Below are positions 10,499 through 54,614 of a DNA stretch of 64,000 bases, piece by piece. Position 1 is the stretch's first letter. Each line of letters starts with the position of its first letter. The notes below the pieces were generated by a model that was given only the letters and a program-made list of their open reading frames with translations, was not told the origin of the DNA and did no database searches. The DNA comes from Chlorobiota bacterium (GTDB lineage: Bacteria > Bacteroidota > Ignavibacteria > OLB7), in contig CP065014.1 of assembly GCA_016700335.1 (NCBI GenBank), positions 2,374,534 through 2,438,533 of the forward strand. The letters are read 5' to 3'. A program made the translations under genes and the position numbers.

Positions 10499-11233
10499 AT
10501 GAAAATTACTGTTGATAGCAAAATTGGTGATGTGGTAGCTTTGGATTATAGAACTGCAACAATTTTTGAAAATTACAAAATAGATTTTTGTTGTGGAGGA
10601 TATAAAACAATTGGGCATTCTTGCCGGAATAATTCTGAGGCTGAAAATTTGGTTGAAGAGTTAACAGCTCAAATTAATTTAGAATCAAATTCATCAATTG
10701 ATTTTAATTCTTGGCAAACTGATTTACTAATTGATTACATTGTTAAAAAACATCATCGGTATGTACTAAAAAGTGTACCGATTATTAAAGGATATTTGAC
10801 TAAAATTTGTTCTGTCCATGGTATAAAACATCCAGAGTTATTTGAAATAAGAGATATCTTTTTTGATTCTGTTGAAGAATTATCTGTTCATATGAAAAAA
10901 GAAGAAGATGAATTATTTCCATATTTACTTTCATTGATTGATAATACTTCAAGTTTTAAAAGCAATTTTTCTAATAATGAAATTGATGGAAATATATTAG
11001 TTAAAGATTTGATTAAAGACCATGAAAATGAAGGAGAAAAGTATAGAAGAATATCAGAATTAACAAACAACTTTACAACTCCAGACGATGGATGTACTAC
11101 TTACAATATAGCATTATTATCATTGAAAGAATTCCAAAGTGATTTGCATTTACATGTACATTTAGAGAATAATATTTTATTCCCAAGAGCAGTAATGTTA
11201 GAAACAATAAAAACTGAGGGAATTATTAATTAG
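10499..11233 (+). CDS. ytfE: Iron-sulfur cluster repair di-iron protein RIC (YtfE/ScdA)
   Basis: The product has an N-terminal ScdA_N signature (IDFCCGG) followed by hemerythrin-like His/Glu motifs (KHHRY, DHENEG, HLHVHLENN). Confidence 0.8.
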   Translation: MKITVDSKIGDVVALDYRTATIFENYKIDFCCGGYKTIGHSCRNNSEAENLVEELTAQINLESNSSIDFNSWQTDLLIDYIVKKHHRYVLKSVPIIKGYLTKICSVHGIKHPELFEIRDIFFDSVEELSVHMKKEEDELFPYLLSLIDNTSSFKSNFSNNEIDGNILVKDLIKDHENEGEKYRRISELTNNFTTPDDGCTTYNIALLSLKEFQSDLHLHVHLENNILFPRAVMLETIKTEGIIN

Positions 11234-11338: not shown

Positions 11339-11776
11339 ATGTTCTCAAAAGCTTGTGAATATGCAATTAGGGCTACAATATTTATTGCTTTGCAAACAAA
11401 AAACAAAATCATAGTAAGCCTTAAAGATATATCAAAAGAGATAGATTCACCTATTGCTTTTACAGGTAAAATTTTACAATCACTTGCAAACAAGAATATT
11501 TTAAAATCAATTAAAGGGGCTGGTGGTGGATATGAAATTAATGTAAGTTATAAAAATAATTCTATTAATTTGTATGATATTGTTGTTGCAATTGATGGAG
11601 AAAATCTATTTAAAAGTTGCGGTATTGGTTTAAAGGAATGTAATTCAATCAAACCTTGCCCAATTCATAATGAGTACAAAATTATTAGAGAAGGTTTAGT
11701 TAAGTTACTAGTAGAAACAACTATAAATAAATTAGTTATTGATTCAAAAAAGTTAGATTCATTTTTAAAGAATTAA
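11339..11776 (+). CDS. Rrf2-family transcriptional regulator (Fe-S cluster type, NsrR/IscR-like)
   Basis: The N-terminus (MFSKACEYAIRATIFIA) matches the Rrf2 wHTH. The three-Cys cluster C94/C101/C107 (KSCGIGLKECNSIKPCP) has IscR/NsrR spacing. Confidence 0.8.
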   Translation: MFSKACEYAIRATIFIALQTKNKIIVSLKDISKEIDSPIAFTGKILQSLANKNILKSIKGAGGGYEINVSYKNNSINLYDIVVAIDGENLFKSCGIGLKECNSIKPCPIHNEYKIIREGLVKLLVETTINKLVIDSKKLDSFLKN

Positions 11777-11917: not shown

Positions 11918-14900
11918 TTACTTTTGAAGAATCATCGGTTTAGTTTTTGAGTAAACACCTGAAGTTAATTTGTAATAATACAAACCACTTGGTAATGAAC
12001 TACCATCAAAAGTAAATTTATAATTACCAGATTCAAGATTTTCATTTATTAATGTCAATAATTTTTCACCTATTGAATTAAATATTTCAAGTTTAGTCAA
12101 ACCATCTAAACCTAAAGAAAAAAGAATTTCAGTTGAAGGATTGAATGGATTGGGATGATTTTGATTTAATGTATAATTACTATTAGTTAAATCAATTAAC
12201 CTGTATTTTCCACCACAAACTGTATCAATAAGAACTAAGCTTTTAGTTGTTGAAAAAGAAACACATTTATTCAGATTTTGCTCAATTGTATAGGAAATTT
12301 GATTATTTAATTTTTCACTTAGGAATAGATTGTACTTTAAATTTACCAATGTTCCTTTTCCATGTAATACTTGACCTTGTGGAGCATTCAACTCAAGTTT
12401 CATTTTTCCAGTTATTATAGATAAAATTTTGATATCCCAACCTTGTAAGATAGTTCCTTTTAGCAGCTGATATTTATTAGAATCATTATAGTTTGATAAT
12501 AAAATTGAGTTCGGTTCATAATTAACTTCAATAATTAAGGACTTAACATCGGCACTTACAATATCATCTGTTAAAGTTATTGGGATAATTATTGAATCTG
12601 AAGGTACTCCATTAAAATATTTATCAATTTTTGTTTCGGCTGTTATATTCTTAGATTTACCTGTAATATTAGAAGAAGCAGTTACAACTACAACATTACC
12701 AGAAGAATCAAAGCAATCAACAAACATGATAGTTGATTCAGTTTGAGCTTTGTTTGGAATAAACTTTATTGGGATCTTAAGTTTCTGACCTATTGATAAT
12801 CTTGTCTCTTGAATTAATCCTACAACAAAAACATCACTAGTCAGAACAATAGAATTTTTCTTAATGGTTAATGGCACTTCACCAGTATTAGTTAAAACAA
12901 CTGATCCTGTATCTGTATTACAAGTAAGAATCTCTTTGAATGATAAACCAGTTAAAGTTGCATCTGATTTTTTTTGTGGAATTTGATCATCTGGAATCCT
13001 TGCTAAGATTGTGGCACAAGAATCATCACAATATGAATGAAGATTAGATGATACACAAATTATTGCACTTTTTATTCCACCAGTATTTGATTTAAACCTA
13101 ATTGGAACTTGATAAATATCGCCAACATTTAAATCAATAGGATCCTTAGGAGTTGGTTTTTTATATAATGGTTCTAGTGAAATTTCTGGATCACCTTTAA
13201 GTTCAATTCCAGTTATCCTTAAAGGATGTGAAGGAAGTGCAGTTATAGTAATATAATCATTATAATAAAGTCCTTTATAACTTAACAATCCAAAATCAAA
13301 ATCATTGATTGCAATATGAGCAGTAATACCTTTACCCTGAATTAGAGTTTCAACAGTATCACCTGCAGTTGTTGTTAACCTTGCTCTGCAAGAATAGAAC
13401 TTCTCATCTTTTGGATAAAATAAAATCTCCTGAAATCTTTTATTATCAGCTGAAGTATCTTCACCTCTTATAATATCACCAATTTCAATTGCAGGACGTG
13501 GTTTTTTTGCAAATCTAAAAATACTATCTTTTGCATCTTGGCCTAAAAGCTCAAATGAAGAAACTGTAAATGGACCATTACTTGTATTCCAAATAAAAAT
13601 ATTCTGTGCTGAAGGGGTTTTGTTTTTTGCACAATTGCTAAGTGGATATGTAGTTAATTGACCACCGAAATCTGTTCCTGTTATGGCTGGTGCAGATTTA
13701 ATAACTTTTGAATAAAAAATAGGTGTATCTCTCTGACAAGTAATTGCATTACTATAGCATTTAGCTTTTACCCTATTAAATCTAAGTGTATCTGAAACAA
13801 AAGAAATACCTACTTTTTTACATTCGCCTCTTACTAAAGTAATGTTTTGTAAAGATAGCAAATCGATTGGATCAATGAAAAATTCACCTCCATTAGGAAA
13901 CTCAAATGTTGATTTACCAGGAGGAGTAATATTCCTAAAATGCAAAATACCTTCTCCCAAATTACAAATATCAATATACCTTTTAACTAACTTTCCAGGT
14001 GGAATAGTTCCAAAGTCAAGGTCATCAATGTAAATACAAGGAAATTTTAGTTTACTTAAATTCAAAGGAACATAAAAAGTATCGCAATCAGTAACAACTA
14101 CTAAATTATCTTTATAATTCTTGTAAAAATCTGTTGGATAAATAGTAACTTGAACTTTCATACTCTCACCAGGTTTTAGAGTATCAGGGAAGTTTGAAGG
14201 TATTATAGTATCTAGTTCAAAATCTGGAACAGCATTTCTAAATCCAAGTTGTTTAACAACAATTGTTTTATATGAATTATTCTTTATTGTAACAAATGGT
14301 TTAGCAGTTTTAGTAGAATCAAAATCAATTTTGTTAGGAATCATATCAAGTTTAAATCCTTGATGTGAATATTTAACTTTCCATTTATACCCAGTTCTAT
14401 CGGTTATTACAATATCTGCAACAGCATCTACTCTTATATTTTTAGGTCTAACTGTAAACCTAATAAAGTTTGCACCAATTACTCTGAAATATTTATCAGG
14501 TACTAATACACTATAAGCAACATTAGTATCATTTTCAATATTAATAGATCGAAATCCTGAAGGTTTTGGATTAACTATTTTTGCTTCAACTATCATAAAG
14601 CTACATTCATCTCTAAAAGTTTTAATTTCAACAGAATCATGTGGAGCTAAATAGAGTCTACTCGGAGCAACTGGATAACCATACGCAGTTGCTGTTGATT
14701 CATTATAATTGTAGTTACCATTTACTGGATCGGCTTGTCTAGATTCAGATCCATCAGAAAATCCATAACAATATGCAGCAAATTTTGCACCATTTGAACC
14801 CTGAATAAATCCTGGGCTACCAGCAAATTTTGCATCAAGTAATATAGTACCCCAAACATATCTAGTACCTGGTACAGCTTTAATAAGATTTAGTTTTGCA

Positions 14901-16423
14901 GGTCTGCCAGGTACTGAACTAAATTTTACTTCAATTTGATCTTTCCAAATTGAATCAGTTATAATATTTATATACTGAGCTTTATAAAAAGGAGCAAAAC
15001 TAATCCACTGTTCTCTTGGAGTTATCTCGCACATGAAAGTTGCTCGAGAAAGAAATGTAACATCTATAAATGCTTCTGAAGTTTTTGGACCTGTATAAAC
15101 CGGTAATGGAGTAACAAATGCTTGTGAAGGTTTATCTGTTTTTAGAAGAACTCCTTCTTCTATAGTTTTTATAAAAGGCCAACTTCCATCTCGACCAAAT
15201 TCTTGAGGAAAAAAAGGAGAAGCAGGGGTTGCTTTTGAGTTTACTACAAATGTAGGACCACTAATAATCTCAGATTTTAGAATTTTTGTTGTATCATTTG
15301 ATGTTCCATAAATTCTAACTAATTCTCCTAACCTCAAAAGTCCATTACTAGGGTAATCAGATATTGGCTGCTTAGGAAGTTTGTTATCATAAACTGGTGC
15401 AAATACAAACTCTGTTCCTTGTGCATTAATTGGTGTTAAAGACTCAATAAGTAAATTCTTAAAAGTATTTTTTAACATACCATGTATATCAGAATCTTTA
15501 AAACCTGCACTAGATCTTGTATTTCCTGAAATAACACCAATTGGTTTGTTAGAAATAATTCTAGTCCCAGCAATATCATTTTTCATCCTATAATCATCTC
15601 TTACAGTATCGGCATTACTTTGAATTAAGTAAGCATCATTCATTTCTAATTTAGCTTTAGTAACTTTTTCATAAGGGAAATAAGAAGAATCTTTTTTTGA
15701 CCAATAATAATATGTCGGGATATACTGAAAATCAGTACCACTATCAAGTGCTGTAACAACCGCCTCAGCAGGTGCAGGAACTGGTCTGCTATAAACAAAA
15801 TCAACATTTAAATCATCATCATTCTTATAATTATACTTTGTATTCACTTCAACAACTCCCTTTAAAGCATCATCAGGTGCAGATGCTAAATAATATTCAT
15901 TCCCCCAACTTTCAGCTGGAACGGGAGTCCATACTTCGGCACCGTTTGTTCCTGTAATTTCACAATAAACAACAATTGGATATGTTGACTCTATTCTAAT
16001 ACTTCTGTTTGCTAATACTTCCCCTGCTGTATCTGCAAATGCAGGAGTATCATCAGATCCGTTAAACAATGCTGTAAATATTGTAAATGACTTACCAGTT
16101 AAGGCAAGATTAATTACTGAATCGTTAGGTTTTTTAATAATTATAGTTTGATCAACTGCCGAATAAATATGAACTAATGGAGTACCAAGTGATGCTGATG
16201 GTTGAAGTGGTGGCATATATTTGCCCAATGAATCATCAAGAATATCTTGTTGATCTTTAGGAATAAATGTATGAGATCTAATTTGTGGAAACGATATGAT
16301 GTATATTTTACCTGTAGAACCTTCTTCTAATGATTGGGAAAATAATGAAGAATTTGAGATTAAAAAGAAAAGAAAAGAGATAAGAACTAACTTTGTAAAG
16401 TAAGTATAATTAATAAGAATCAT
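11918..16423 (-). CDS. Giant secreted protein (1501 aa): T9SS cargo, paralog 1 of a three-member family
   Basis: The product has a signal peptide (MILINYTYFTKLVLISFLFFLISNSSLFSQS). It shares the conserved N-terminal module (EVWTPVPAESWGNEYY, SNKPIGVISGNTRSS) and the DFG-repeats (DLDFGTIPPGK...) with the other two paralogs. Its C-terminus carries a T9SS CTD (NHPNPFNPSTEILFSL...SGLYYYKLTSGVYSKTKPMILQK). Confidence 0.8.
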   Translation of the reverse strand: MILINYTYFTKLVLISFLFFLISNSSLFSQSLEEGSTGKIYIISFPQIRSHTFIPKDQQDILDDSLGKYMPPLQPSASLGTPLVHIYSAVDQTIIIKKPNDSVINLALTGKSFTIFTALFNGSDDTPAFADTAGEVLANRSIRIESTYPIVVYCEITGTNGAEVWTPVPAESWGNEYYLASAPDDALKGVVEVNTKYNYKNDDDLNVDFVYSRPVPAPAEAVVTALDSGTDFQYIPTYYYWSKKDSSYFPYEKVTKAKLEMNDAYLIQSNADTVRDDYRMKNDIAGTRIISNKPIGVISGNTRSSAGFKDSDIHGMLKNTFKNLLIESLTPINAQGTEFVFAPVYDNKLPKQPISDYPSNGLLRLGELVRIYGTSNDTTKILKSEIISGPTFVVNSKATPASPFFPQEFGRDGSWPFIKTIEEGVLLKTDKPSQAFVTPLPVYTGPKTSEAFIDVTFLSRATFMCEITPREQWISFAPFYKAQYINIITDSIWKDQIEVKFSSVPGRPAKLNLIKAVPGTRYVWGTILLDAKFAGSPGFIQGSNGAKFAAYCYGFSDGSESRQADPVNGNYNYNESTATAYGYPVAPSRLYLAPHDSVEIKTFRDECSFMIVEAKIVNPKPSGFRSINIENDTNVAYSVLVPDKYFRVIGANFIRFTVRPKNIRVDAVADIVITDRTGYKWKVKYSHQGFKLDMIPNKIDFDSTKTAKPFVTIKNNSYKTIVVKQLGFRNAVPDFELDTIIPSNFPDTLKPGESMKVQVTIYPTDFYKNYKDNLVVVTDCDTFYVPLNLSKLKFPCIYIDDLDFGTIPPGKLVKRYIDICNLGEGILHFRNITPPGKSTFEFPNGGEFFIDPIDLLSLQNITLVRGECKKVGISFVSDTLRFNRVKAKCYSNAITCQRDTPIFYSKVIKSAPAITGTDFGGQLTTYPLSNCAKNKTPSAQNIFIWNTSNGPFTVSSFELLGQDAKDSIFRFAKKPRPAIEIGDIIRGEDTSADNKRFQEILFYPKDEKFYSCRARLTTTAGDTVETLIQGKGITAHIAINDFDFGLLSYKGLYYNDYITITALPSHPLRITGIELKGDPEISLEPLYKKPTPKDPIDLNVGDIYQVPIRFKSNTGGIKSAIICVSSNLHSYCDDSCATILARIPDDQIPQKKSDATLTGLSFKEILTCNTDTGSVVLTNTGEVPLTIKKNSIVLTSDVFVVGLIQETRLSIGQKLKIPIKFIPNKAQTESTIMFVDCFDSSGNVVVVTASSNITGKSKNITAETKIDKYFNGVPSDSIIIPITLTDDIVSADVKSLIIEVNYEPNSILLSNYNDSNKYQLLKGTILQGWDIKILSIITGKMKLELNAPQGQVLHGKGTLVNLKYNLFLSEKLNNQISYTIEQNLNKCVSFSTTKSLVLIDTVCGGKYRLIDLTNSNYTLNQNHPNPFNPSTEILFSLGLDGLTKLEIFNSIGEKLLTLINENLESGNYKFTFDGSSLPSGLYYYKLTSGVYSKTKPMILQK

Positions 16424-16595
16424 ATTTTAAAATTATAGAATAAAATTGACGATTTTGTGAAGTAGAAAAGAAAATAAAGATTGAAATGTATATTATTGTT
16501 CTTGACACTAAAATATGTTAATTAGTTACATTTGAAACGAAAATTTATATCAGAATAAACTTACTTCATAATTAAATCATTTACATTGCATAATA

Positions 16596-19500
16596 CTAAA
16601 TCTTATTTCGAATAATTTCAGCTTCGGCTTGTCTATTCTGTAAAGTTAAAATTCTCTCTAAATAAAAAACTAACTCATCATCATCTGGCATTAGAATTAT
16701 TGATTTGTAAAACAGTTCTTCTGCAATAGAAAGGTATTCTTCTTCTAACAATTTTTTGCCTATCATTAAGGTTGCATCTCTAATTGCATTTTCCCAATCT
16801 TCGCGTAATGATTCATAAAAATCTGAATATAATCCAGGAAAAGGAACATGATCTTTTACAATTTCAAACAATTTAATAAGTTGTTCTCCAGAGTTTATTA
16901 GATTGTTCTGCTTAAACAACTTGAGTGCATTTTTAAGTAATAATTGTGCATCTATCAAATCAATATTTACCTCTGTATTTTTAAAATTAATTGGCTCAGA
17001 ATCAACTTGTTCAAAATATTTTTCGTTCACAATCTCTCTTAATCTGAACCTAACTTTTCTCATCAAACTCTTAGCAATACTAGGGTTAATTTCTTCTGTA
17101 ACTAAAGTATTAAAGTCATCAAGTGAGAGTTTTTTTGATAACATTTGATTTGCAACTATTGCTCCAATTGCATTCTTTATCCTTTCTCCTCTAACTTTTT
17201 CATATTGATTTAACGGTAAAGCAATTGAGAATTCACCTAGAACAGATACTCTTAACTTTGACTCATTGTTTTGAATTTGATTTCGTAATGTTAAATTTGA
17301 TTTGTAAATTTTTTGTAACTCCGAACCAATTAAATTCACCTCTAGAGAATTAATATATCCCTCGAATTCTTTAATAAAAACTCTAAGGATCTCAAATAAT
17401 TCTCTATCTAAAAACCAAATTGAAATTGAAGTTAATGTGTCCTTTATTTTACTTTTTATTGTTTCAGATGTATCCTTTAAATAAAGCAAATACCTAATAA
17501 CTGATATTTTGAATGATACTGTTCTTAAAGTTAAGTTATCTACAATTAGAAATTTTATTATTACGGATTCATTTTCTCCAAATGTTTTATTGTTTTTTAT
17601 TGGCTCTAAAATGTCACACAATTGATTATTAGAATTTTCTGAAACAATTTTATTTATTTCGAAATAATTCTCTATGATTTGATAATATAATATTCTCATT
17701 TCAATAGGTAATATCTTGATATTCACATCAAAATTCAAATCAATTTTTTCTAATAGATTCACTAATTTTTTTTTATCTAATCTAAAATTAACTCCATAAA
17801 TTAACAGAATAAATAAATTCTGTTTTTCATTTGGATATGTATTTATAAAGTCAAGACATAATGATTCAACATTTTCAATATTTTCATTTAGTAAAATGTT
17901 TGAAAAAATTCTATAAATCTTACAGTTAATAATAGAAGTGTTATGTGAAATTTTATTTGATTCAATTTCAGCTCTTTGCAATAACTCAACACCTTTTTTT
18001 ATTTCTCCAATCCTAATCAAAAATCTAACCATTGATACAATTGTTTCAACTGGTAAATATTTTATTTGTTCTAGTCTTTTGAGTAACTCTTTCTTTTTAT
18101 TAATTTCTGAAATTGAATTAACTTCAACTAATAGTAAAGATCCTCCAACAGTTTTAAGTAATCCCTCACGGAGCTCTAACTCCAATTCATAATCATTACT
18201 TAAAAGGTTAAACTGGTTTTCAATTACTTTGATAATTTCAATATTATTTTTAATAGAAAACAAATCTAAAGCAATAGCTAAGAAACCGTCAAGACAACTT
18301 ATGTAGTTATCTGAATATCTCAAATCAGGGAATTTGGTTATAATATCCAATACATTTTTAAATTCTGACAACAACGAATAATTTTCTGGGGTACTATTAT
18401 TTTTCGACGAAATTAGATTTTTAGAATATACATAAAGCAGTAAAGCATTTAACCTAACATCACCTTCCTCAATCGTTTCAAAATTCTTTGTTGAATCAAC
18501 TAATTCAGTAATTTGTTTTAAATATTCATCCTCTGCAATGGATTCTCTAATAGAAAATAAATATCCACATTTTAGGGCTGCTTCCATTCTATTATAAACA
18601 GTTACATCAATTTTAACTTTTAAATATTTAAGAATTTTTTTTGCACAATTAAATACTTTTTGAGAATATTTATTTTCACTTGTTTGTGCTACTGTTGCAT
18701 GAATATCTAAGATATTTTCAAATGTTAATATTAAATCATTAATGTCTAGTTCATTAAAATTTATTTTTAAGAAATTTTCAAAATAAATGAAAGAATAAAT
18801 AGGTAAATTATTACAGATTATTGAAGTATATTTTTTAGAATTAAAAGTACTCAAATGTTGCATACTTTCATACACTATACTGTTTGAGAATGCATAAGTT
18901 GGAAATATACTATTCGTGCTCCCAGAAATTGCCCTAACTGAATAATGTGATTCAACTATAATTCCATTATCAACTAATGTGTTAATAATTTTACTATCAT
19001 CACCTATTAATATGTTGGCTGCTTCAATAGAAAATAACTCGCCAAGAGATGCTAATGTTTTTAAGTATGATAACTCAGAGTTGTTTAATGTTAATAATAT
19101 CCCATCACATACAGATTTGGCACATTTCATAATTATAGAATTACATTTTTCATAATCATCTTCAAAAAACCATCCATTTGCTTGAAGTGATATAACATTT
19201 TCTTTAATTAGAGCTCTTAACGAAGACCTGAGAACTAATGCATTTCCTTTTGTATGATAATATAATGATTCTATAATTGAATCAATAGGATTTGTATCAA
19301 AAATGAGTTTCCATAATTCAATTATCTCTAACATACTTAGCCCATGAATTTTAATTTCATCCTCCAAATATATTTCAATAATACTCCTGATTATACCTCC
19401 AATTGGTCTGGATATCAATACAATAGAAAATGATTCATCGCTTAATGCATCCATAATTTGAACAAGTTCCGACTGAGAATTTTTGTTCATCAAATTAACA

Positions 19501-19895
19501 TCTTCAATTACTAAAGTTGTAATTTTAATTCTTGACAATTTTCTTATAATTTGAATAATTTCAGATAAGTTATTTGAGGGTGATGATCTAATTAAATGTA
19601 AAGTTGATTCAGAATTAATGGTATTTGAAATTAGAGTTAATAAAGATGATTCCGACTCAGGGTAAAATTTTAGATGTAGAGCAATTATTTTATTTTTACT
19701 CAATTCTTCTAAGAGAATCCTTACAAATGAAGATTTACCAACACCAGCCTCACCAGTTATTAAGCATAATCTTAAATGATTTGCAATAGATGTTTTCTCA
19801 ATAAATTCTTTTGCTTGTTTGATTAGATCTAGCCTACCAATCAGGGGTAAATTCCCATAACTGATAAATGATTTTAGTTGCGAATCTGATAACAT
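16596..19895 (-). CDS. STAND/AAA-family NTPase with a C-terminal SARP-like DNA-binding wHTH and BTAD (putative signal-transducing transcription regulator)
   Basis: The N-terminus has a P-loop (GEAGVGKSS) and a Walker B-like TLVIEDVNL. The long middle region is helical. Near the C-terminus, LRVSVLGEFSIALP...GERIKNAIGAIVANQ...RKVRFRLREIV follows the Trans_reg_C/SARP pattern (LRxxLLGPxEV...LqvyvsrLRkaL) and is followed by a TPR-like tail. Confidence 0.55.
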   Translation of the reverse strand: MLSDSQLKSFISYGNLPLIGRLDLIKQAKEFIEKTSIANHLRLCLITGEAGVGKSSFVRILLEELSKNKIIALHLKFYPESESSLLTLISNTINSESTLHLIRSSPSNNLSEIIQIIRKLSRIKITTLVIEDVNLMNKNSQSELVQIMDALSDESFSIVLISRPIGGIIRSIIEIYLEDEIKIHGLSMLEIIELWKLIFDTNPIDSIIESLYYHTKGNALVLRSSLRALIKENVISLQANGWFFEDDYEKCNSIIMKCAKSVCDGILLTLNNSELSYLKTLASLGELFSIEAANILIGDDSKIINTLVDNGIIVESHYSVRAISGSTNSIFPTYAFSNSIVYESMQHLSTFNSKKYTSIICNNLPIYSFIYFENFLKINFNELDINDLILTFENILDIHATVAQTSENKYSQKVFNCAKKILKYLKVKIDVTVYNRMEAALKCGYLFSIRESIAEDEYLKQITELVDSTKNFETIEEGDVRLNALLLYVYSKNLISSKNNSTPENYSLLSEFKNVLDIITKFPDLRYSDNYISCLDGFLAIALDLFSIKNNIEIIKVIENQFNLLSNDYELELELREGLLKTVGGSLLLVEVNSISEINKKKELLKRLEQIKYLPVETIVSMVRFLIRIGEIKKGVELLQRAEIESNKISHNTSIINCKIYRIFSNILLNENIENVESLCLDFINTYPNEKQNLFILLIYGVNFRLDKKKLVNLLEKIDLNFDVNIKILPIEMRILYYQIIENYFEINKIVSENSNNQLCDILEPIKNNKTFGENESVIIKFLIVDNLTLRTVSFKISVIRYLLYLKDTSETIKSKIKDTLTSISIWFLDRELFEILRVFIKEFEGYINSLEVNLIGSELQKIYKSNLTLRNQIQNNESKLRVSVLGEFSIALPLNQYEKVRGERIKNAIGAIVANQMLSKKLSLDDFNTLVTEEINPSIAKSLMRKVRFRLREIVNEKYFEQVDSEPINFKNTEVNIDLIDAQLLLKNALKLFKQNNLINSGEQLIKLFEIVKDHVPFPGLYSDFYESLREDWENAIRDATLMIGKKLLEEEYLSIAEELFYKSIILMPDDDELVFYLERILTLQNRQAEAEIIRNKI

Positions 19896-19977: not shown

Positions 19978-20304
19978 ATGTTCAAGGAGAATTTCATTTA
20001 TATGAGTAAATATATATTTTGGAACGAGTTGCAATTTAAAATGGAACACTTAAACATTAACTTGTTATTAGTTATAAAAAATAAAATTAATATGGAAACG
20101 AACTCTAACACTGTTTTAAATCTAAAAAGTACAATTAAAGTATGTATTCATTGTGGTGTAACTCAATTAGAGGGTCAGGATAAATGTTCAAATTGTGGTG
20201 AAATTTTAAACATAGAATGTAATTGTTGCAATAAAATTATTAGGCAAAATATATTTAACTATTGTCCAAATTGTGGAGTAAAAATAGTTATATTAATCAA
20301 ATAA
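19978..20304 (+). CDS. Small double zinc-ribbon protein
   Basis: The ORF contains two CxxC...CxxC pairs (CIHCG...CSNCG and CNCC...CPNCG). The true start may be an internal Met (METNSN...). It is transcribed divergently from the STAND NTPase gene. Confidence 0.4.
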   Translation: MFKENFIYMSKYIFWNELQFKMEHLNINLLLVIKNKINMETNSNTVLNLKSTIKVCIHCGVTQLEGQDKCSNCGEILNIECNCCNKIIRQNIFNYCPNCGVKIVILIK

Positions 20305-27033: not shown

Positions 27034-27630
27034 TTGAAAAATACATTAGATAAAGAAATAGTAGATAGGATTTTGCAAAATGATAAATCTGCTTTTATTG
27101 ATTTGATAAATCGATATAAGAATAAAGGATTTTCATTGTCTATGAAAATACTTAAAAACAAAGAAGATGCAGAAGAAGCTTTACAAGATTCATTTATTAG
27201 GGTTTTTAATGCTTTAAATAATTTCAACTGGAATTCTTCTTTTTCTACTTGGTTCTATAGAATTGTTTTTAATGTATGTTATTCAAGAACCCAGGCAGGA
27301 AGTGAAAAATTTTACAAACTAGGATCTTCAATTAGTGACATGGAGGAAGGTGGTGTTGATAGCATAGGATCTAATAAGATGACTCCAGATACAATTTTAA
27401 TCAATAGTGAAATAGAAAAAATTGTAAATGAAGAAATTGAAAAACTACCTCCACATTATTCAATTGTTCTAGATTTATTTCTACTTCAAGAGCAAAGTTA
27501 TGAGGAGATTGTATCAATAACTGGAATTAATATGGGTACAGTTAAAGCACAAATTAGCCGAGCAAGGATTATATTAAGGAATAATGTTGCTAATCGACTT
27601 GAATTAAATAGTTTAGCAAATATCTATTAG
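27034..27630 (+). CDS. RNA polymerase ECF-type sigma-70 factor
   Basis: The product has a region-2 pattern (ALQDSFIRVFNAL...WFYRIVFN) and a region-4 HTH (EQSYEEIVSITGINMGTVKAQISRAR). Confidence 0.8.
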   Translation: MKNTLDKEIVDRILQNDKSAFIDLINRYKNKGFSLSMKILKNKEDAEEALQDSFIRVFNALNNFNWNSSFSTWFYRIVFNVCYSRTQAGSEKFYKLGSSISDMEEGGVDSIGSNKMTPDTILINSEIEKIVNEEIEKLPPHYSIVLDLFLLQEQSYEEIVSITGINMGTVKAQISRARIILRNNVANRLELNSLANIY

Positions 27631-27680: not shown

Positions 27681-28214
27681 ATGGATCATTTAACACAAGA
27701 ACAAATCCAACTTTGGATTGATTTGGAATCACCTAACTCCAAGGAGGTGGCAATGCATATTCATATTTGTAAAAAATGTGCAAAAGAAGTAGAATTCAAT
27801 GTTCTGATAGAAAAATTTGCTTCATCAACAAATGAAAATAATATTACAACATTAAATTTTACAAACCAATTAGTTAGTAAAGTTTATCCTTTGAATTTAA
27901 ACTATCTTAAAGAACAAACTTTTTTAGAAAAGTATAGTTTATTAATATTGACTTCTCTTTCAGTTCTTATTGGTTCATTAGTTTACATTAACAAACCTGT
28001 ATTTGCTTCAAAATATTTACCTAATTTAAATCTTAAATCATTTTTTGAATTATCAATTTCAAAACTAATTAATTTATTTGGAGTAAACATAAGTTCAATC
28101 TTACACCTAACTTATGATCCTTTCTTTAAGTTATTAATTGTTTCAACATTAATTATTTCATTCCTTTTCTTTATAGATAAAATTATTAAAAATGTAGTTT
28201 CAAAAAATCATTAA
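27681..28214 (+). CDS. Putative zinc-finger (ZAS-type) anti-sigma factor, membrane-anchored
   Basis: The ORF lies immediately downstream of the ECF sigma gene. Its N-terminal HIHICKKC fits the HxxxCxxC motif, and two TM helices follow. Confidence 0.5.
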   Translation: MDHLTQEQIQLWIDLESPNSKEVAMHIHICKKCAKEVEFNVLIEKFASSTNENNITTLNFTNQLVSKVYPLNLNYLKEQTFLEKYSLLILTSLSVLIGSLVYINKPVFASKYLPNLNLKSFFELSISKLINLFGVNISSILHLTYDPFFKLLIVSTLIISFLFFIDKIIKNVVSKNH

Positions 28215-34606: not shown

Positions 34607-37600
34607 TTATTTTACTATGATGACCAACTGACGATCTATAACGCCATCACATTCTAATGTAAGCATATAAATTCCACTTGCAAAATACTTACTTGAAACA
34701 TCTAACATAGTCTCTTTTTCAATTAACCCAGCTACAGCATTTCCATTTTTAGCAGCTTCAAATTGAGTTAAAACTAAGTTACCATTCATGTCATAAAGTT
34801 TCAATTTAGCATCTTTACTATCATCTAATAAATACTTTACTAACATTGTTGATGAAACTGGATTTGGAGAAATTTTTGTTACTCCACCCTTAAATGGATC
34901 TGTACCTCTTAAACCACCAAGTTTACAGAATCCTTTAACTTTAAATGAACCATCAAACAATCCAGTTGTAATTACTTTTCCACCCTTAGATGGAACATTC
35001 CATTTAATACTTTCCTTCACAAATCTTACTGGTGTTACAGAATCATTTCCTAATAACACATTCATAGGAATTGATTTCAAAGTTCCACTTGCAAGAACAG
35101 GAGAAACTGTTAATGGTAACTGAGCCCAAGTTAGACCTAAAGCATCTTTCTTGTATGAAACCTGTGAAAGTAACGCTGGATCTTGAGGTGCAAGCATTGT
35201 TGCGTTATATTCAATTGTAAAACTAAGCGAAGATACTTCACTTTCTATTATTTTGGTTGGTACTCCATTGTAAGAAATTGTTACGAAGTTAGGATTTGTT
35301 TGTTTAACATCTCCTGTCGAATTATTAATTTCTAATGCAGCGTATGCTACTCTTTCGTCTCCAGTTCCTTGTAATACTATTCTTGCAGAAGCAGGACATG
35401 TAGCATCTGCACTTATTACTATAGAATCTTTAGATGTTCCTGGAGTTCCAACATATTTAACTTTAAGTACTATTTCTTCACCTGGTAATAATGTCTTAGG
35501 TAATGCAGGTATTCCAGATACAATTGTAAATGGTGTTGTTGATGCTGGTCCTCTAAAGTTATTAATTATAGCATTTGTATTTCCACCATTACGGAAACTA
35601 ACACTAACTTCTTTAAACGATACTGAATCAACTAATACTGCTCCAAAATCAACTTGACTTGCAGAAGATGTTAAAATTGTTTTGTTAACAACTAACTTAG
35701 CTGTAGCACTTGCAATTTCATTTCCACAATCACCTTTAACATTACAACTATAATCTCCTGACTCATTTGAAGTCAAATTACTCAAACTATAAGTATTTGA
35801 ATTTGCTCCTGAAATCACTTGACCATTTTTTAACCATTGGTATTTTATGTTTGCTCCAGTTGCTGTAACACTAAATGATGCAGATCCACCTTCACAAATA
35901 ATTTGACTTGTTGGTTGTGTTGAAATTGCAGCTACTGAACCAACTATTACTGTTGCAGTTGTAGTTGTTTGTGTTTGACCACAATCATCAGTAACATCAC
36001 ATGAGTATGTTCCAGCTTCACCAGAACCACTTATATTCGTTGAGTAAGATGATTTAGTTTCACCTGGTAATGCTGTTCCATTCTTTTTCCATTGGTATTT
36101 CAAATTCTTACCTCCAGATACTGTTACTGAGAATGAAATACTACCTCCTGGACAAACATTCTGAGTTCCTGTTGGTTGAGATGTAATTGTAAATGGTTTA
36201 GAAATAGAAAGTTTAGCTGTTAAAGGACCAGATCCAGTAATTGCACAAGCTCCTGTAACTTCTACTGTGTAGAAACCAGCATCTGCTTCTGAAACTGAAG
36301 TTATACTTAAATCAGCTTTATTTTCACCAGGTATATTTACACCATTTTTCTTCCATTGATATGTAATACCAGAGCCAGTTGCTTTAACTGAGAACTTAGC
36401 TGGATTACCAACACATAATTCTAAGTCTTTTGGACCTTCAGTTATTGCACCACCATCTTTAACAGTTATAACACATTCTTTACTTGCCACATCTGGTTTA
36501 CAACCACCTTTAATTGTTACTTTAATTTTAGCATTATTATCTGCTTTAGTAACATTAAATTTATAAGATGATGTAGTTTGACCTACTATCACAGTTCCAT
36601 TTTTTGTCCATTCATATGCTAATCCACCTCCAGTAGCAGTTACATCTAATTGAGCTGCGGTATTATCACATGCATCTAATGTAGCTGGTAAATCTAAAGT
36701 TATTATTGGAGATTTATTTACAGTTAATACAGCTGACACAGTTGTTGAAGGTGGACATTGTCCCATTACTTCAACTGAATATGTTCCTGCATCTGTATCT
36801 ACAACATTACTTAGATTTAACATGTTAGTATTAGCACCTGTTATTGCAACGCCATTTTTCTTCCATTGGAAATTCAAACCTCCACCTTTAGCTTCAACAC
36901 TAAATGATGCATTATCTCCAGCACATGCAATAGCATCAATAGGAGATGTAGTTACTACTGGAGCAGTATTAACAACTAAATAAGCATCAACAGAAACTAC
37001 TGATGCAAAAGCACAAGGTGTTCTTACTTCACAGCTATAATCACCTGCATCAGATGCAGCAACTGAATTAATTGTATAAATTGTATCGTTTGCACCTGGA
37101 ATAATTTGGTTATTCCTTCTCCATTGATAACTATATGTTCCATTATTAAACCATTCTCTTGTACCAAACACTCCAATAGAGAAAGATACATTGCTTCCTG
37201 CACACATTGTTCTATTTAGTGGCTGACGTGTAATTCTTGGTAATGGTAGAACTTTTAATAGAAGTTCTTGAGCAAAATTAACTTTAGTTGAACAAGGTCC
37301 ATTTGAAAAATAATTTGCACGATACTTTGTTGTATCATCTAATCTTAAATTATTAATTCTCATTTTAAACACTGTTGTTGGAGGCACTGGTAATGGATTT
37401 ACAGTTTGATTAGAACTTAAATCATAATGATTACCTAATAAATTACTATGAACAACAGTATCTCTATTAGTTGATGAACTTAGGAAATAATTAGAAGATC
37501 CAATTGTTGTCCAAGTAATTCCATCTCTTTCTAGTTTTTGCCAAATAACACCTGGGTTATCACCGTTTAATGTAACAGATAAGTCACCATTTTCTGTTTC

Positions 37601-40600
37601 GCAAGGTGAAGAATTCACAGCATTTACGCCACCATTAACTGCCAATGAAACTGGTTGTTTCATTTTAACGTTAACATAAATTCTTGTTGGAGGAACTGGA
37701 GTACAAGCACTAAGTACTGGAGCACAAGCCGAACCAACTGGTCTAATTAAATCTAAATAATATAAACCACCATCAGCTAAAGTTGTTACTCCTAAAGGTC
37801 CAGTACCAGGAATTGGTAAAGCAGCTGGTAATGTATGGAATCCTGTTGTTGGAATTGTATATGCAAAATTATTTACTCCATTCATTGTTCCTGAGTTTAC
37901 CAAAGCATTTAATGGACCTCTCCATTCATAATTTAATATATTTAATGCATTATTTCCACCAGCACCCAAAGCTCTAATGTTTGTTGATATAGCATTGCCT
38001 AAAGCATCAGTTGTATTATAGTTACCACTGAAAGTATTACCAGTTGTACCTATACAAACTTCAGTATTGATAACAGGATATGTAACTCCACCAACTAAAA
38101 CTGTGTTTTGTGGAAGTCTATCAGCATACATAGGTCTTTGAACCAAAGTAAATCCTGATGGATTTCCATTAGCCCCATTATATCCAATACGACCATCATT
38201 TCCTTGAATTATATTAAAATTGGCAAATGTTCCTCCTGTTGGTAAAGGAGATCCAGGTGACACAATATTTTGTGTATTATCACTAGTATCAGCCACTGTA
38301 GTTTGAGGATATGGACGAATATCTGTTTGAGTTACTTTCCATCTATAGCCACTTAAATAATCTACTCCGTTTGAACCAGTTGGTAAAATATTTGATGGCA
38401 ATTGAGGAACAGTAAACCCGTAATAATAACTTTCAACACCATTTATTGTACCTGCAACAGCAATACCTTGATCATTTAATGAACCTGCACCAACTGCAGC
38501 TATACCTGGACGCATTTGATCTTGATTCCATTCCCAATTACTATTAATTAAAGGATTTGTAATATCATAAGGTATTAAACCAGCAGGTAATCCAGGACCT
38601 GGCTCTGGGGGACGAGTAATATAAAGATCATTAAATAATGGATTATCACTTACAGCATAAGTTGTAAAAGCACCAGCACATCCAACACTTCCTGGAGCTA
38701 CAAATGTTCTTGGGTTTCCAGTTGGAAGATTTTGATCTGAGCTCCAAACTGGACTCAATGCTGAGTTTAATAATTCAATTTTAACGCTTTTAACACAACC
38801 AGATGTTGCAAAACTTACAGTATGAGCTTGTCCAATACATACATTTGTATTACCAACATCTGCTACTGCTATTTCTGATGGTTGCATTTTTAATACATAT
38901 GCATCATCAAAGTTAGGTGTAGAAGTAGGTGGATAGTTTGAACTAGAAGGGAAACCATAAGAATCACCAAATGCATCAAATACTGGATAAGGAGCATTAG
39001 TATATACCGGAATTGTGTAGACGCCTCCAACTCCTGTATTTGCAACCCTACCACCAACAATATATACATTTCTAGCATCATCTAAGTCCATACCACCGCC
39101 ATTTTGTGCGGTAAATTCTCCCATTTGATTTGCACCATTTGAGTTTAATCCTAAATTCCAAATAGTGTTTCTAACTCTTGGGAACTGGCCAGGAGGAATA
39201 GCTGAAGCTGTTGTTGCTCCAAATCCTGCGTTAGCTACTAATGCGTTTGAAGAAGCCATTAATCTTGAATAACATAACGTATCTAGTCTTGGAGAAAATT
39301 TACATACGAACATATTGTAAGCAGTATATAAATTTATTCTGACAGGTATTCTTGATTGAGGGAAACTTGAACTAGAAGTATTACCAACTACATAAACATA
39401 TCCAGCGTCATCAACATCAATTGCAACACCCCATTCAGTATTTTGGTTTCCACCAATATATGTTGAATACGGGAATTGATTACCATTTGTTTGAGATGGG
39501 TCTACATAAGTAACAAAAGCTTCACCATTTCCTTGACATCTAGTATCTGCCGCTCTATTAGAAATAGGGAATGAATTACGATAGTTTATACCATTATAAG
39601 CTGGGTTAAACTGTGTTGAACCTGCTCCATAAAAAGCTAAACCAGTAGAAGGATCAATTACACCTGCATTATTACTGTAAGTAACACCTGTAATATATAC
39701 ACCTCCTTGTGGAGCTAATGCTAAATCCCAAGCTTCATCATTATCTACTGCTGTGAAATTTGGTGTACTTATCATTGTTCCATACTCCATTTGGCCTCCG
39801 CCTGTATTTGCAGTATTTAACTGTAATAAAAAAGCATCTTCTTGATTAGCTGCATAAGCACCAGCAGGTGAACCACTCCAAGAAGTTGGAAATTGATCAG
39901 CAATTGTTGTACCTAATGTTGTTCTTAAAAAAGGAGCAATTGTTGTTCCTGTAATAAACACAGATTGATTAGGTCCAACTTTAATTGCAGAAACATTATC
40001 TACATAATCAACATATTGACCACTTACGGTTGGTATATCTCCTGCTCCACCGAAATAAGAACCATACAACAATTGAGAACTTCCATTAACAGCTGGGTTT
40101 AGCCTAGCTACGAATCCATCAGTTACATTGTAAAAACCATTTATATTTCCACCTTGAACTTGCGAAGGTAATGTTGGTGCAGTATATCTTGGTGCTGGTT
40201 GGAATGCAACCATTGCAGATCCGAATGTTGGGAAATAATTTGTTGCTGTACCTAAAGCTGGAGGTGCAGTTTGAACTGCTGGTAAAGTAGGTAAAACACC
40301 ACCAGAAAATGGAGGTAAATTCACACCCCATTTAAAGATTGTTTGACCACAAATATAGATTTGTCCTCCATCAACATCAATATCAAAAGCTCCATCTTGA
40401 GTATAACTTCCACCTAAATAAGTAGAATATATGATATTCGTACCTAAAGAATTTAATCCTGTTACGAATGCATCACAATACCCTGGTGTAGCATTAAAGT
40501 TCTGATAAGAAGCGTTTAAATTTTGTGACCCCATATTGTATGGGTTTAAATTCCTATTAGGAGATGGTTGAATTGCACCTAATGATGTAGGCAATGTATT

Positions 40601-41872
40601 TGTTCCAATTCCACCAATCAATCTTGAATCAGTTGAAACATAACCACAAATATAAGCATTACCATTTTCAACATCAATATCCATTGAACGATCATCACCA
40701 GAACTAGCAATAATTGTCATATATATCATTGCTCCATTCGGATCCATTTTGGTAACAAAAGCGTCATTATAGAATGATGTTATTGAAGGAACACCTGAAC
40801 CAGCTGGATCATTTCCTGTTGGAAATGTTGTACTTGTACCGTTTGTTCCAGCACCTAATTTTTGAGGATTTGGTGCTCCAGAACCAGCAATTAACATTTG
40901 GTTAGAAGAAGTAAAACCAGTAATGTAAGCATATCCAGCTGCATCTACAGATACCCCAGTTGCTACATCATGGCTTGTTGCAACAGGACCAACTGGATTG
41001 CCAATATATGTACAATATACTAATGGATCAATAACAAGCGGACGAGAAGCATCATAGCTTCCGATATTAAATCCTACAGTTCCATTCTGACGAACAGAAA
41101 AAGAGCATTTAACTTCGCGGTTGTTACCGTTCATATCTTTTTGATATGCATAAATACCAGCTTGACGAATTTCACCAAACTGTGTAAGTATGCGAAGATC
41201 ACCATTGTCATCTACTTTTAAACCACTTTGCCCTGTAATTTTCATTGCAATCATATCAGGGCTCGCACCTGGAGCAACAATGAAATCATAACGTGGTTGG
41301 TTGTTTTCCGTATATAATACGGCATCAATTCCTTTATAAAGTTTTTCAACTTTAACAGAATTAAACTTTGAGACAAAACTTGCCCATTTTGTACGATCAT
41401 TACCCATAAGGTAATTATAGTACCCTGGTTGTTTGTCTTCACCTAGAAGTTTTGTAGAGGCAGAAGCACCTACAAAATTAACTTCAACGGCTTGAACTAA
41501 AGAACTAGAATTTTTAGAATCTGAATTCTTAAAATCATTCTTAGTTTCTTTTTTAGCGGCTAAAGTAGAAGCTTCAGAATTACCATTAGTAGTTTGGTAC
41601 ATATTATACACAAAACCAGTATTGGTAACCCAAAGGTTCATACCATTTAAATCCGCCATGAAGCGTGCATTACCTTCCCATTGTCCTTTATTTTCAATAA
41701 AGCCAATGGAATGATTAGCGAACGCCCTCTCGGCAGACTTAGTATTTGTCTTGCCAAGATCCTTTGTGTTCGTGCTTTGTTGCGCATTAGCAACGGCAGC
41801 AACTACTAACATCAATGCTACTAAAGTAGCCCGTAAAAATGTCGGTCGTTTCATTTTCTGGAGTCCTTTCAA
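34607..41872 (-). CDS. Giant (2421 aa) secreted beta-propeller (SBBP)/Ig-repeat protein with a T9SS C-terminal sorting domain
   Basis: The product has a signal peptide (MKRPTFLRATLVALMLVVAAVANAQ). It carries about 7 SBBP-like repeats (DAAGYAYITGFTSS, DDAGYVYVVGNTSSSSFP) and about 8 Ig-like modules (YQWKKNG...AGTYSCEV). The C-terminal CTD reads LKLYDMNGNLVLTQ...SGIYMLTLECDGVIDRQLVIIVK. Confidence 0.8.
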   Translation of the reverse strand: MKGLQKMKRPTFLRATLVALMLVVAAVANAQQSTNTKDLGKTNTKSAERAFANHSIGFIENKGQWEGNARFMADLNGMNLWVTNTGFVYNMYQTTNGNSEASTLAAKKETKNDFKNSDSKNSSSLVQAVEVNFVGASASTKLLGEDKQPGYYNYLMGNDRTKWASFVSKFNSVKVEKLYKGIDAVLYTENNQPRYDFIVAPGASPDMIAMKITGQSGLKVDDNGDLRILTQFGEIRQAGIYAYQKDMNGNNREVKCSFSVRQNGTVGFNIGSYDASRPLVIDPLVYCTYIGNPVGPVATSHDVATGVSVDAAGYAYITGFTSSNQMLIAGSGAPNPQKLGAGTNGTSTTFPTGNDPAGSGVPSITSFYNDAFVTKMDPNGAMIYMTIIASSGDDRSMDIDVENGNAYICGYVSTDSRLIGGIGTNTLPTSLGAIQPSPNRNLNPYNMGSQNLNASYQNFNATPGYCDAFVTGLNSLGTNIIYSTYLGGSYTQDGAFDIDVDGGQIYICGQTIFKWGVNLPPFSGGVLPTLPAVQTAPPALGTATNYFPTFGSAMVAFQPAPRYTAPTLPSQVQGGNINGFYNVTDGFVARLNPAVNGSSQLLYGSYFGGAGDIPTVSGQYVDYVDNVSAIKVGPNQSVFITGTTIAPFLRTTLGTTIADQFPTSWSGSPAGAYAANQEDAFLLQLNTANTGGGQMEYGTMISTPNFTAVDNDEAWDLALAPQGGVYITGVTYSNNAGVIDPSTGLAFYGAGSTQFNPAYNGINYRNSFPISNRAADTRCQGNGEAFVTYVDPSQTNGNQFPYSTYIGGNQNTEWGVAIDVDDAGYVYVVGNTSSSSFPQSRIPVRINLYTAYNMFVCKFSPRLDTLCYSRLMASSNALVANAGFGATTASAIPPGQFPRVRNTIWNLGLNSNGANQMGEFTAQNGGGMDLDDARNVYIVGGRVANTGVGGVYTIPVYTNAPYPVFDAFGDSYGFPSSSNYPPTSTPNFDDAYVLKMQPSEIAVADVGNTNVCIGQAHTVSFATSGCVKSVKIELLNSALSPVWSSDQNLPTGNPRTFVAPGSVGCAGAFTTYAVSDNPLFNDLYITRPPEPGPGLPAGLIPYDITNPLINSNWEWNQDQMRPGIAAVGAGSLNDQGIAVAGTINGVESYYYGFTVPQLPSNILPTGSNGVDYLSGYRWKVTQTDIRPYPQTTVADTSDNTQNIVSPGSPLPTGGTFANFNIIQGNDGRIGYNGANGNPSGFTLVQRPMYADRLPQNTVLVGGVTYPVINTEVCIGTTGNTFSGNYNTTDALGNAISTNIRALGAGGNNALNILNYEWRGPLNALVNSGTMNGVNNFAYTIPTTGFHTLPAALPIPGTGPLGVTTLADGGLYYLDLIRPVGSACAPVLSACTPVPPTRIYVNVKMKQPVSLAVNGGVNAVNSSPCETENGDLSVTLNGDNPGVIWQKLERDGITWTTIGSSNYFLSSSTNRDTVVHSNLLGNHYDLSSNQTVNPLPVPPTTVFKMRINNLRLDDTTKYRANYFSNGPCSTKVNFAQELLLKVLPLPRITRQPLNRTMCAGSNVSFSIGVFGTREWFNNGTYSYQWRRNNQIIPGANDTIYTINSVAASDAGDYSCEVRTPCAFASVVSVDAYLVVNTAPVVTTSPIDAIACAGDNASFSVEAKGGGLNFQWKKNGVAITGANTNMLNLSNVVDTDAGTYSVEVMGQCPPSTTVSAVLTVNKSPIITLDLPATLDACDNTAAQLDVTATGGGLAYEWTKNGTVIVGQTTSSYKFNVTKADNNAKIKVTIKGGCKPDVASKECVITVKDGGAITEGPKDLELCVGNPAKFSVKATGSGITYQWKKNGVNIPGENKADLSITSVSEADAGFYTVEVTGACAITGSGPLTAKLSISKPFTITSQPTGTQNVCPGGSISFSVTVSGGKNLKYQWKKNGTALPGETKSSYSTNISGSGEAGTYSCDVTDDCGQTQTTTTATVIVGSVAAISTQPTSQIICEGGSASFSVTATGANIKYQWLKNGQVISGANSNTYSLSNLTSNESGDYSCNVKGDCGNEIASATAKLVVNKTILTSSASQVDFGAVLVDSVSFKEVSVSFRNGGNTNAIINNFRGPASTTPFTIVSGIPALPKTLLPGEEIVLKVKYVGTPGTSKDSIVISADATCPASARIVLQGTGDERVAYAALEINNSTGDVKQTNPNFVTISYNGVPTKIIESEVSSLSFTIEYNATMLAPQDPALLSQVSYKKDALGLTWAQLPLTVSPVLASGTLKSIPMNVLLGNDSVTPVRFVKESIKWNVPSKGGKVITTGLFDGSFKVKGFCKLGGLRGTDPFKGGVTKISPNPVSSTMLVKYLLDDSKDAKLKLYDMNGNLVLTQFEAAKNGNAVAGLIEKETMLDVSSKYFASGIYMLTLECDGVIDRQLVIIVK

Positions 41873-54444: not shown

Positions 54445-54515
54445 CGTATTTCAAATATTTAATCTACTTTATTTTGATAAACTAATTTATTTCTAACTTA
54501 AAGGATATAAAAAAA

Positions 54516-54614
54516 GGACCAAGCTTTACCGATTCACACGCCACCTATGCTGACTGCTGCTTCCTTCCGGATCTGACAGGATTGGGCTCGATGACGTTGC
54601 TCGGGACTTGGTCC
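54516..54614 (-). ncRNA. ffs: Signal recognition particle RNA (small/4.5S type)
   Basis: The minus-strand sequence contains CCUGUCAGAUCCGGAAGGAAGCAGCAG, matching the conserved SRP domain IV motif (GUCAGGUCCGGAAGGAAGCAGC). The terminal helix pairs ggaccaag with cttggtcc. The region is a local GC-rich island of about 100 nt. Confidence 0.75.

Follow-up and report, generated by a model that had tools for sequence, protein, structure and literature searches.

A STAND NTPase with a C-terminal SARP module in a Chlorobiota bacterium and its predicted zinc-ribbon target

In this study, we ask what a large NTPase of a Chlorobiota bacterium is, and which gene it controls. Its gene (16596..19895, minus strand) lies in a 64-kb stretch of contig CP065014.1, which we call the window and whose positions serve as coordinates throughout. 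The product of 1099 amino acids (aa) looks like a STAND (signal-transducing ATPase with many domains) protein, and a giant gene for a cargo protein of the type IX secretion system (T9SS) follows it on the same strand. An earlier note on this DNA had proposed that the protein carries the DNA-binding module of the SARPs (Streptomyces antibiotic regulatory proteins) and acts as an ATP-dependent switch on that giant gene. We will argue that it is probably a signal-dependent activator with a SARP output, arranged in the order of MalT, and that its predicted direct target is not the cargo gene but the small zinc-ribbon gene on its other side (20092..20304). We give this reading a probability of roughly 0.6. 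The domain architecture, the protein family, the conserved partner gene and the oriented layout of repeats and promoter are all apparent in silico.

The public record says little about this protein. The identical entry QQS66047.1 is titled merely 'ATP-binding protein [Chlorobiota bacterium]', its cluster at 90% identity also includes a Candidatus Kapaibacterium entry, and the SARP domain is unrecognised by public annotation. The cluster places the organism, with its low GC content, among bacteria of the Kapaibacteria type. The gene and the parts of its product are the following:

16596..19895, minus strand: STAND-SARP regulator gene, an open reading frame (ORF) of 1099 aa with at least 150 full-length cluster representatives as homologues
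19341..19844, minus strand: P-loop nucleotide-binding domain, residues 18-185 (Pfam AAA_16, AAA_22)
19731..19754, minus strand: Walker A, GEAGVGKS (sequence motif)
19500..19514, minus strand: Walker B, LVIED (sequence motif)
18855..19334, minus strand: helical domain and winged-helix domain of the nucleotide-binding oligomerisation domain (NOD), residues 188-347 (secondary structure of the full-length model)
17262..18839, minus strand: all-helical repeat region, presumed sensor, residues 353-878 (AlphaFold2 (AF2) model; Foldseek match to 6mfv)
16962..17258, minus strand: OmpR/SARP-type winged helix-turn-helix (wHTH), residues 880-978 (AF2 models; AfsR profile match; Foldseek)
17028..17084, minus strand: recognition helix, residues 938-956, motif RKVRFRLRE (model and alignment)
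16599..16961, minus strand: BTAD (TPR-like), residues 979-1099 (family Pfam BTAD matches; fold matches)

The C-terminus is, clearly at the level of the family, a SARP module, in which profiles and models place an OmpR-type wHTH followed by a BTAD. A word-indexed search returned eight relatives of about 1100 aa, two of which are labelled 'DNA-binding SARP family transcriptional activator' by JGI and four of which match Pfam BTAD. Among the C-termini of the wider family, 30 of 43 match BTAD, with a best E-value of 1.5e-8. The window C-terminus aligns with its relatives at 27-50% identity. Against the PDB sequences, a profile of eight sequences reached AfsR at E 0.008, amid TPR noise. With 43 C-termini, AfsR ranks first (E 1.3e-6), and the alignment is colinear along both the wHTH and the BTAD (profile positions 6-229). 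The AF2 model of residues 872-1099 (pLDDT 95.9, pTM 0.90) points in the same direction. Its significant full-length Foldseek matches in the PDB are AfsR and EmbR alone (E 5e-7 to 1e-4, about 225 columns), namely 8k60 and 8hvr for AfsR (E 5e-7 to 2e-6, TM 0.65-0.66) and 2fez and 2ff4 for EmbR (TM 0.68-0.69, the former over 228 columns), and the remaining matches are generic TPR. The recognition helix bears the RLRE motif of the OmpR family, which is conserved across this family; its R951, R953 and E954 are invariant in the eight-member alignment and near-invariant in one of 100 sequences.

The wHTH and BTAD claimed in the earlier note are thus borne out, by the family profile, which leads to AfsR, and by the model, which leads to AfsR and EmbR; the AlphaFold check that it suggested returned a SARP fold at the high confidence given above. 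Its profile check came out in two ways, with matches to BTAD and AfsR at the level of the family and no Pfam match for the window's C-terminal 238 aa alone, even at E<=10. Trans_reg_C was matched neither by the window protein nor among the listed family matches. The note had made the whole idea depend on a profile match of this segment and, since the window C-terminus has none in Pfam, that rule would have rejected the idea wrongly. Two features that usually define SARPs are absent: the module is not N-terminal, as it spans residues 880-1099 of 1099, and the distribution is not actinobacterial, as the family is found in metagenome-assembled genomes (MAGs) of Kapaibacteria, Ignavibacteria and Chlorobiota type. 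A review holds SARPs to be exclusive to actinobacteria (PMC10972967).

The remainder of the protein qualifies as a STAND NTPase by its Walker motifs and, in the model, by a nucleotide-binding domain with the helical and winged-helix domains of a NOD, followed by a repeat sensor. Walker A occupies residues 48-55 and Walker B residues 128-132, and residues 18-163 match Pfam AAA_22 (34.8 bits, cut-off 27) and AAA_16 (34.7 bits, cut-off 32.6). NB-ARC has no match in the regulator at E<=0.1 and GerE has none either (both Pfam), and the NCBIfam and PADLOC scans of the regulator returned nothing except the P-loop. G51, G53, K54, D132 and R163-P164 are invariant across the family. In the NOD, TKGNALVLR may be a GxP-like motif (family form TxGNPLALR), and FSNSIVY may stand for the family motif FTHxLLH. 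The full-length AF2 model, built on a 100-sequence alignment (pLDDT 92.3, pTM 0.77), runs from an alpha/beta NTPase through helical and winged-helix domains, to about residue 347, and an unbroken series of helical repeats (353-878) to the SARP module. Its top Foldseek match in the PDB is the archaeal STAND-TPR protein 6mfv (E 2e-10, 751 columns), and further matches include SAMD9, ORC/Cdc6, plant NRC NLRs, NOD2, MalT (8bob) and AVAST5. The N-terminal family profile, searched against PDB sequences, leads weakly to Hsp104/ClpB and MalT. The presumed sensor consists of helices only, with pLDDT mostly above 85, and is the least conserved stretch of the family alignment. Here too the earlier description largely holds: the 1099-aa P-loop NTPase is a real ORF with AAA_16 and AAA_22 above cut-off, and the claimed reversal of the AfsR order is seen in the full-length model as NTPase, sensor and SARP. 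The helical middle of about 700 aa is indeed all-helical, though not of a single kind, as it divides into about 160 aa of helical and winged-helix domains and about 530 aa of sensor.

This architecture resembles several known regulators, each time in part. AfsR of Streptomyces coelicolor (8hvr, 8k60), the best PDB match by both profile and fold, likewise combines a SARP wHTH and BTAD with a STAND NTPase and a sensor of helical repeats. The order there is SARP-NOD-TPR, whereas here it is NOD-sensor-SARP; the NOD of AfsR is described as NB-ARC (PMC10972967), whereas that of the window protein matches AAA_16 and AAA_22; and AfsR is actinobacterial, whereas this family belongs to Bacteroidota/Chlorobiota of the Kapaibacteria type. 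MalT and the LAL regulators (large members of the LuxR family that bind ATP) share the N-terminal AAA_16-type STAND NTPase, the helical sensor and a C-terminal DNA-binding output, but this output is a LuxR/GerE helix-turn-helix and not a SARP wHTH with BTAD. EmbR of Mycobacterium tuberculosis, ActII-ORF4, DnrI and RedD have the wHTH and BTAD fold, and small SARPs bind direct repeats near the -35 region (PMC10972967); unlike the window protein, EmbR and the small SARPs stand alone or with an FHA domain, lacking NTPase and sensor. The SARP-LAL hybrids PimR, SanG and FilR do combine a SARP with an AAA_16-type ATPase half (PMC10972967), yet their SARP is N-terminal. The window protein looks like an independent fusion of a MalT-like half with a SARP, rather than a permuted AfsR.

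The regulator is by no means alone. A profile search gave at least 388 cluster representatives (50% identity) at E<=1e-30, and almost all of the best 150 span the full length of about 1100 aa. In one-genome-per-species GTDB contigs we collected 76 family loci from about 23 MAGs, labelled Kapaibacterium/Kapaibacteriota, Ignavibacteria, Chlorobiota or Bacteroidota, apart from a few evidently mislabelled bins. Three MAGs hold eight or nine loci each. More than one family match is found at 14 loci, mostly as tandem copies and in a few cases as fragments of a single gene; tandem pairs or triplets occur at L011, L019, L025, L043, L051, L054, L058, L065, L076 and L080. Literature searches for the NTPase-sensor-SARP architecture or for the family found no paper describing either. 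We regard it as an undescribed, much-duplicated family of STAND activators with a SARP output, and the window protein is very likely a transcription factor.

What such a factor might control is best read from its neighbours. ORFs were called in all loci and the neighbouring genes clustered, and the best-conserved neighbour of the family is a gene for a double zinc ribbon, which the earlier note does not mention. Proteins of this kind have about 70-110 aa and eight cysteines, and they align across the neighbours of different family members. A zinc-ribbon homologue diverges from the regulator at 30 of the 70 assessable regulators (first or solo copies with enough upstream sequence), including the window copy and its closest homologue. 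A hidden Markov model of the zinc-ribbon family, built without the window sequence, has a single match in the window (E 1.8e-8), the ORF that diverges from the regulator gene. This gene and the elements before it are the following:

20092..20304, plus strand (open from 19978; likely ATG at 20092): double-zinc-ribbon gene, about 70 aa, predicted direct target (Pfam DZR/Zn_Ribbon_1)
20021..20025 and 20043..20047, plus strand: direct repeats GGAAC, 22 bp centre to centre, predicted SARP operator (sequence; family layout)
20058..20064, plus strand: TAACTTG, a -7 box of TAnnTTG type, 10 nt past the proximal repeat and 34 nt before the zinc-ribbon ATG

The case for an operator comes from the family as a whole. 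In the 300 nt before each of 80 regulators, 7-mers that recur 22 nt apart form a sharp peak (239 observed against 38 expected). The signal stems from at least 30 different loci, each with one pair of direct repeats of 9-21 nt. Such pairs are present in 24 of the 80 regulator upstream regions, compared with 26 of 443 upstream regions taken as controls at these loci, and no other spacing stands out. The sequence of the repeats varies by subfamily (GATAATCG, CCGTGGCCGA, CGACCGC, CGTGACGG, TGTAAGC and others) and tracks the sequence of the recognition helix. Each pair is single and always on the divergent side: within 10 kb to either side, for example before nearby cargo genes, none of the 80 loci has a second copy of its pair. 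The repeats keep a constrained distance to the zinc-ribbon core (122-169 nt in 12 of 16), while the regulator start lies anywhere from 30 to 222 nt away from them.

The repeats are, moreover, oriented. Read away from the regulator, 18 of 35 pairs have the word TAnnTTG at +3 to +10 past the proximal repeat; read towards the regulator, none of the 35 does, where 1.3% would be expected at random (p about 6e-25). A search anchored on the zinc-ribbon gene found the same layout of repeats and promoter in further loci. TAnnTTTG is the -7 box of sigma-A in Bacteroidota (PMC9723704). The binding sites of SARPs are heptamers in direct repeat, separated by 4-15 nt, that overlap the -35 region (PMC10972967). 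Sites of this kind, at helical-turn spacing, are what SARPs bind, and the comparative evidence makes the pairs 22 bp apart the predicted operator of the SARP module.

The window has this layout once. Its repeats lie 128 nt from the regulator start, and the arrangement GTTCC-N17-GTTCC has no other exact copy in the 64 kb. A direct-repeat search of both intergenic regions beside the regulator returned nothing, because the core of the window repeat is only 5-6 nt long, and a sigma-70 promoter scan was uninformative (40 sites against 32 expected). Support for the window repeat comes instead from the family layout and from the closest homologue, in which TTCGGAACG occurs twice with the same spacing and position.

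The mechanism that we infer would run as follows. A ligand or partner would be sensed by the helical region, and this would drive nucleotide exchange in the NTPase module and its oligomerisation, an ATP switch that would free or align the C-terminal SARP modules. These would bind the two direct repeats 22 bp apart and recruit RNA polymerase to the zinc-ribbon gene at 20092..20304, thus activating it. The zinc-ribbon protein would then be the output of the module, in parallel to AfsR, which activates the adjacent afsS: the AfsR box overlaps the -35 region and drives this small adjacent gene (PMC10936776). AfsS and the double zinc ribbon are seemingly unrelated targets, their sequences not having been compared. 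As the spacing is 22 bp without a middle copy, the SARP modules would not be immediate neighbours as they are in AfsR, and two of them might instead lie one turn apart, plausibly held by the oligomer. An effect on the cargo gene, if any, would be indirect, mediated by the zinc-ribbon protein or by read-through transcription.

Several observations weigh against a SARP-type activator of the zinc-ribbon gene. At 29 of the 70 assessable regulators, the detectors, which are crude, found neither a zinc-ribbon gene nor a repeat pair, and no k-mer apart from AT-rich words is common to all 80 upstream regions. The covariation of repeat and recognition helix may reflect common ancestry alone, and L062 shares the GATAATC repeat while having a different helix. 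In the window, the repeat core is just 5-6 nt in AT-rich DNA, and it was spotted after the family pattern was known. The binding geometry would also have to differ from that of AfsR, whose protomers occupy two adjacent 11-bp repeats, whereas the repeats of the STAND-SARP family are 22 bp apart with no copy between them.

The window copy itself may be unusual. It keeps 84 of 114 strongly conserved family positions, and three histidines that are near-invariant in the family are replaced: H134N follows Walker B (19494..19496), and H338N and H342Y fall in the FSNSIVY stretch (residues 336-342, 18870..18890). The loss of all three also counts against the reading for this particular protein, since its switch may behave atypically. 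In the NOD of AfsR, a His-Asp motif acts as the activation switch, and its mutation locks AfsR ON (bioRxiv 10.64898/2026.09.02.748808). If H338 corresponds to an MHD-like switch histidine as in AfsR and the NLRs, the window copy could, by analogy, be constitutively active or decoupled from its signal.

The most probable alternative is the proposal of the earlier note, that the regulator directly activates the cargo gene, or forms an operon with it, as an ATP-dependent switch for a surface protein. Two features are needed here:

11918..16423, minus strand: T9SS cargo gene, 1501 aa, with IgGFc_binding, a HYDIN/choice-of-anchor-D Ig domain and Por_Secre_tail (Pfam, NCBIfam); its link to the regulator is unproven
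16424..16595, minus strand: regulator-cargo spacer, 172 bp, in which no repeat operator was detected

A T9SS cargo gene on the same strand was part of the earlier note, and it is there, 172 bp away; its Por_Secre_tail covers residues 1424-1499 (PF18962, 27.5 bits, cut-off 27; TIGR04183, 29.7 bits, cut-off 23). The common strand and the short gap, in which no terminator-like site was found, do speak for direct control. So does the enrichment of genes of at least 700 aa beside family members: they make up 34 of 136 neighbours (25%), against 49 of 420 genes further off in the same loci (11.7%, p 3e-4), and full-length or partial homologues of the cargo gene occur near the distant members L034, L044/L047, L052, L036 and L077. 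On the other hand, the spacer has no repeat pair, each locus has a single pair within 10 kb on either side, always on the divergent side, and the repeats, read in the direction of the regulator, never have a -7 box after them (0 of 35). Next to the closest homologue (41% identity) there is no giant, and the gene that follows it encodes a peptidase S9. T9SS tails are about as frequent among the adjacent large genes (8 of 34) as among the non-adjacent ones (10 of 49), that is without enrichment, and family genomes are rich in such cargo genes anyway. We consider direct control of the cargo gene unlikely in the window, and in the form given in the earlier note the claim lacks support: the spacer has no site, and the only repeat pair in the window is on the divergent side. 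The synteny check that it proposed gave a mixed picture, with no giant beside the closest homologue, a moderate enrichment of large genes, and cargo homologues near distant members.

For some relatives, a regulator of a giant may nevertheless be the right description. In a distant subfamily (L003, L032, L033, L069 and probably L029), four repeats and a -7 box are aimed at a divergent operon that encodes a secreted-looking protein of about 2000 aa and an fn3 protein, which favours the cargo alternative, since the promoter of this subfamily aims at the giant gene. The genes beside this subfamily form a set of a protein of about 2000 aa without Pfam match, an fn3 protein of about 700 aa and a protein of about 600 aa, upstream of the regulator and divergent from it in L003 (1..9824), L032 (1..9830), L033 (1..9921) and L069 (1..9680). 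In L069, L032 and L033, the intergenic sequence between this set and the regulator has four repeats of the CCGTGGCCGA/CCGTGGTCG type, and in L010 and L051 the set lies downstream of the regulator, on the opposite strand. In yet another arrangement, the zinc-ribbon gene shares the strand of the regulator, lies downstream of it (L034 13405..13719, L044 8137..8439 and L047 7839..8141, all plus strand) and directly precedes a gene of about 850-890 aa. The one in L034 is a confirmed T9SS cargo with Por_Secre_tail, and those in L044 and L047 cluster with it, a layout that ties the small gene to a cargo gene.

A second alternative keeps the repeats and changes their role: they would be an autoregulatory operator, or the site of another factor, and the zinc-ribbon gene would be a mere neighbour, or encode a partner or ligand of the sensor. 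The repeats do lie in the common divergent region, 128 nt from the regulator start in the window, and divergent regulator-target pairs are frequently autoregulated. Tandem second copies of the regulator, moreover, lack both a zinc-ribbon gene and a repeat pair (7 of 7 assessable), which hints at shared targets or hetero-oligomers. But the distance to the regulator is unconstrained (30-222 nt), and the promoter box points away from it in 18 of the 35 pairs but never towards it, which makes this explanation distinctly improbable. An antiviral role, in which a variable sensor of an Avs-like STAND protein would see invader proteins and the C-terminus would be a defence effector, is the least probable: the STAND core with its helical repeat sensor, the AVAST5 and NLR fold matches, the strong expansion of paralogues in tandem arrays and the poorly conserved sensor are all in its favour, yet we reject it on domain content, since the sole PADLOC match is mad8 (E 3e-4) over the 30 residues of the P-loop (42-71), no nuclease, protease, TIR or similar effector is present, and the output is instead a well-conserved DNA-binding module of transcription activators, with an intact recognition-helix motif and a conserved promoter-linked operator alongside. 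On this point, the earlier preference for a transcription factor over a defence protein stands, given the conserved wHTH motif, the operator-like repeats and a PADLOC match at the level of the P-loop only.

A few other features of the window deserve mention. The cargo gene has two full-length paralogues in tandem at the window edge (55271..59683 and 59835..63974, minus strand), 31-35% identical; the region upstream of this pair lies outside the window. A 2421-aa ORF (34607..41872, minus strand) lies in the part with the highest GC content (0.33-0.36 against about 0.27) and has no similarity to the cargo paralogues at E<=1e-5. Just past the cargo gene, a ScdA_N/hemerythrin gene of the iron-sulfur repair type (10499..11233, plus strand) and an Rrf2-family gene (about 11339..11776, plus strand) look like a nitrosative or iron-stress pair. 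The public gene call has a gene for an ECF-type sigma factor with Sigma70_r2/r4_2 (27034..27630, plus strand), and the 177-aa ORF after it (27681..28214, plus strand) could encode its anti-sigma factor. The sole Rfam match in the window is the bacterial small SRP RNA (RF00169, 54.2 bits) at 54514..54613, minus strand.

Returning to the activator with a zinc-ribbon target, it may be extended to the whole lineage, which we do tentatively and with more doubt than conviction. Kapaibacteria-type bacteria would then have a lineage-specific set of one-component STAND-SARP switches, with eight, nine or more loci per genome, each with a private 22-bp repeat operator and its own zinc-ribbon protein as a new class of second-tier regulator, which would relay the signal to RNA polymerase, for example, or to giant surface and T9SS genes, a convergent counterpart of AfsR/AfsS outside actinobacteria.

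SARPs are regarded as actinobacterial and tied to antibiotic clusters, and the new family sits in another phylum. To our knowledge, STAND transcription factors are known from a few models only (MalT, AfsR and GutR). Here, a large unannotated family has a SARP output at the C-terminus of a MalT-like NTPase and sensor, with many paralogues per genome, each apparently with its own operator. The predicted layout is explicit: a direct repeat, N12, a second direct repeat, N4-9 and TAnnTTG. The conserved zinc-ribbon partner may represent a new type of small regulatory protein, and the family as a whole offers a natural series of matched pairs of recognition helix and operator in which the specificity of SARPs may be read.

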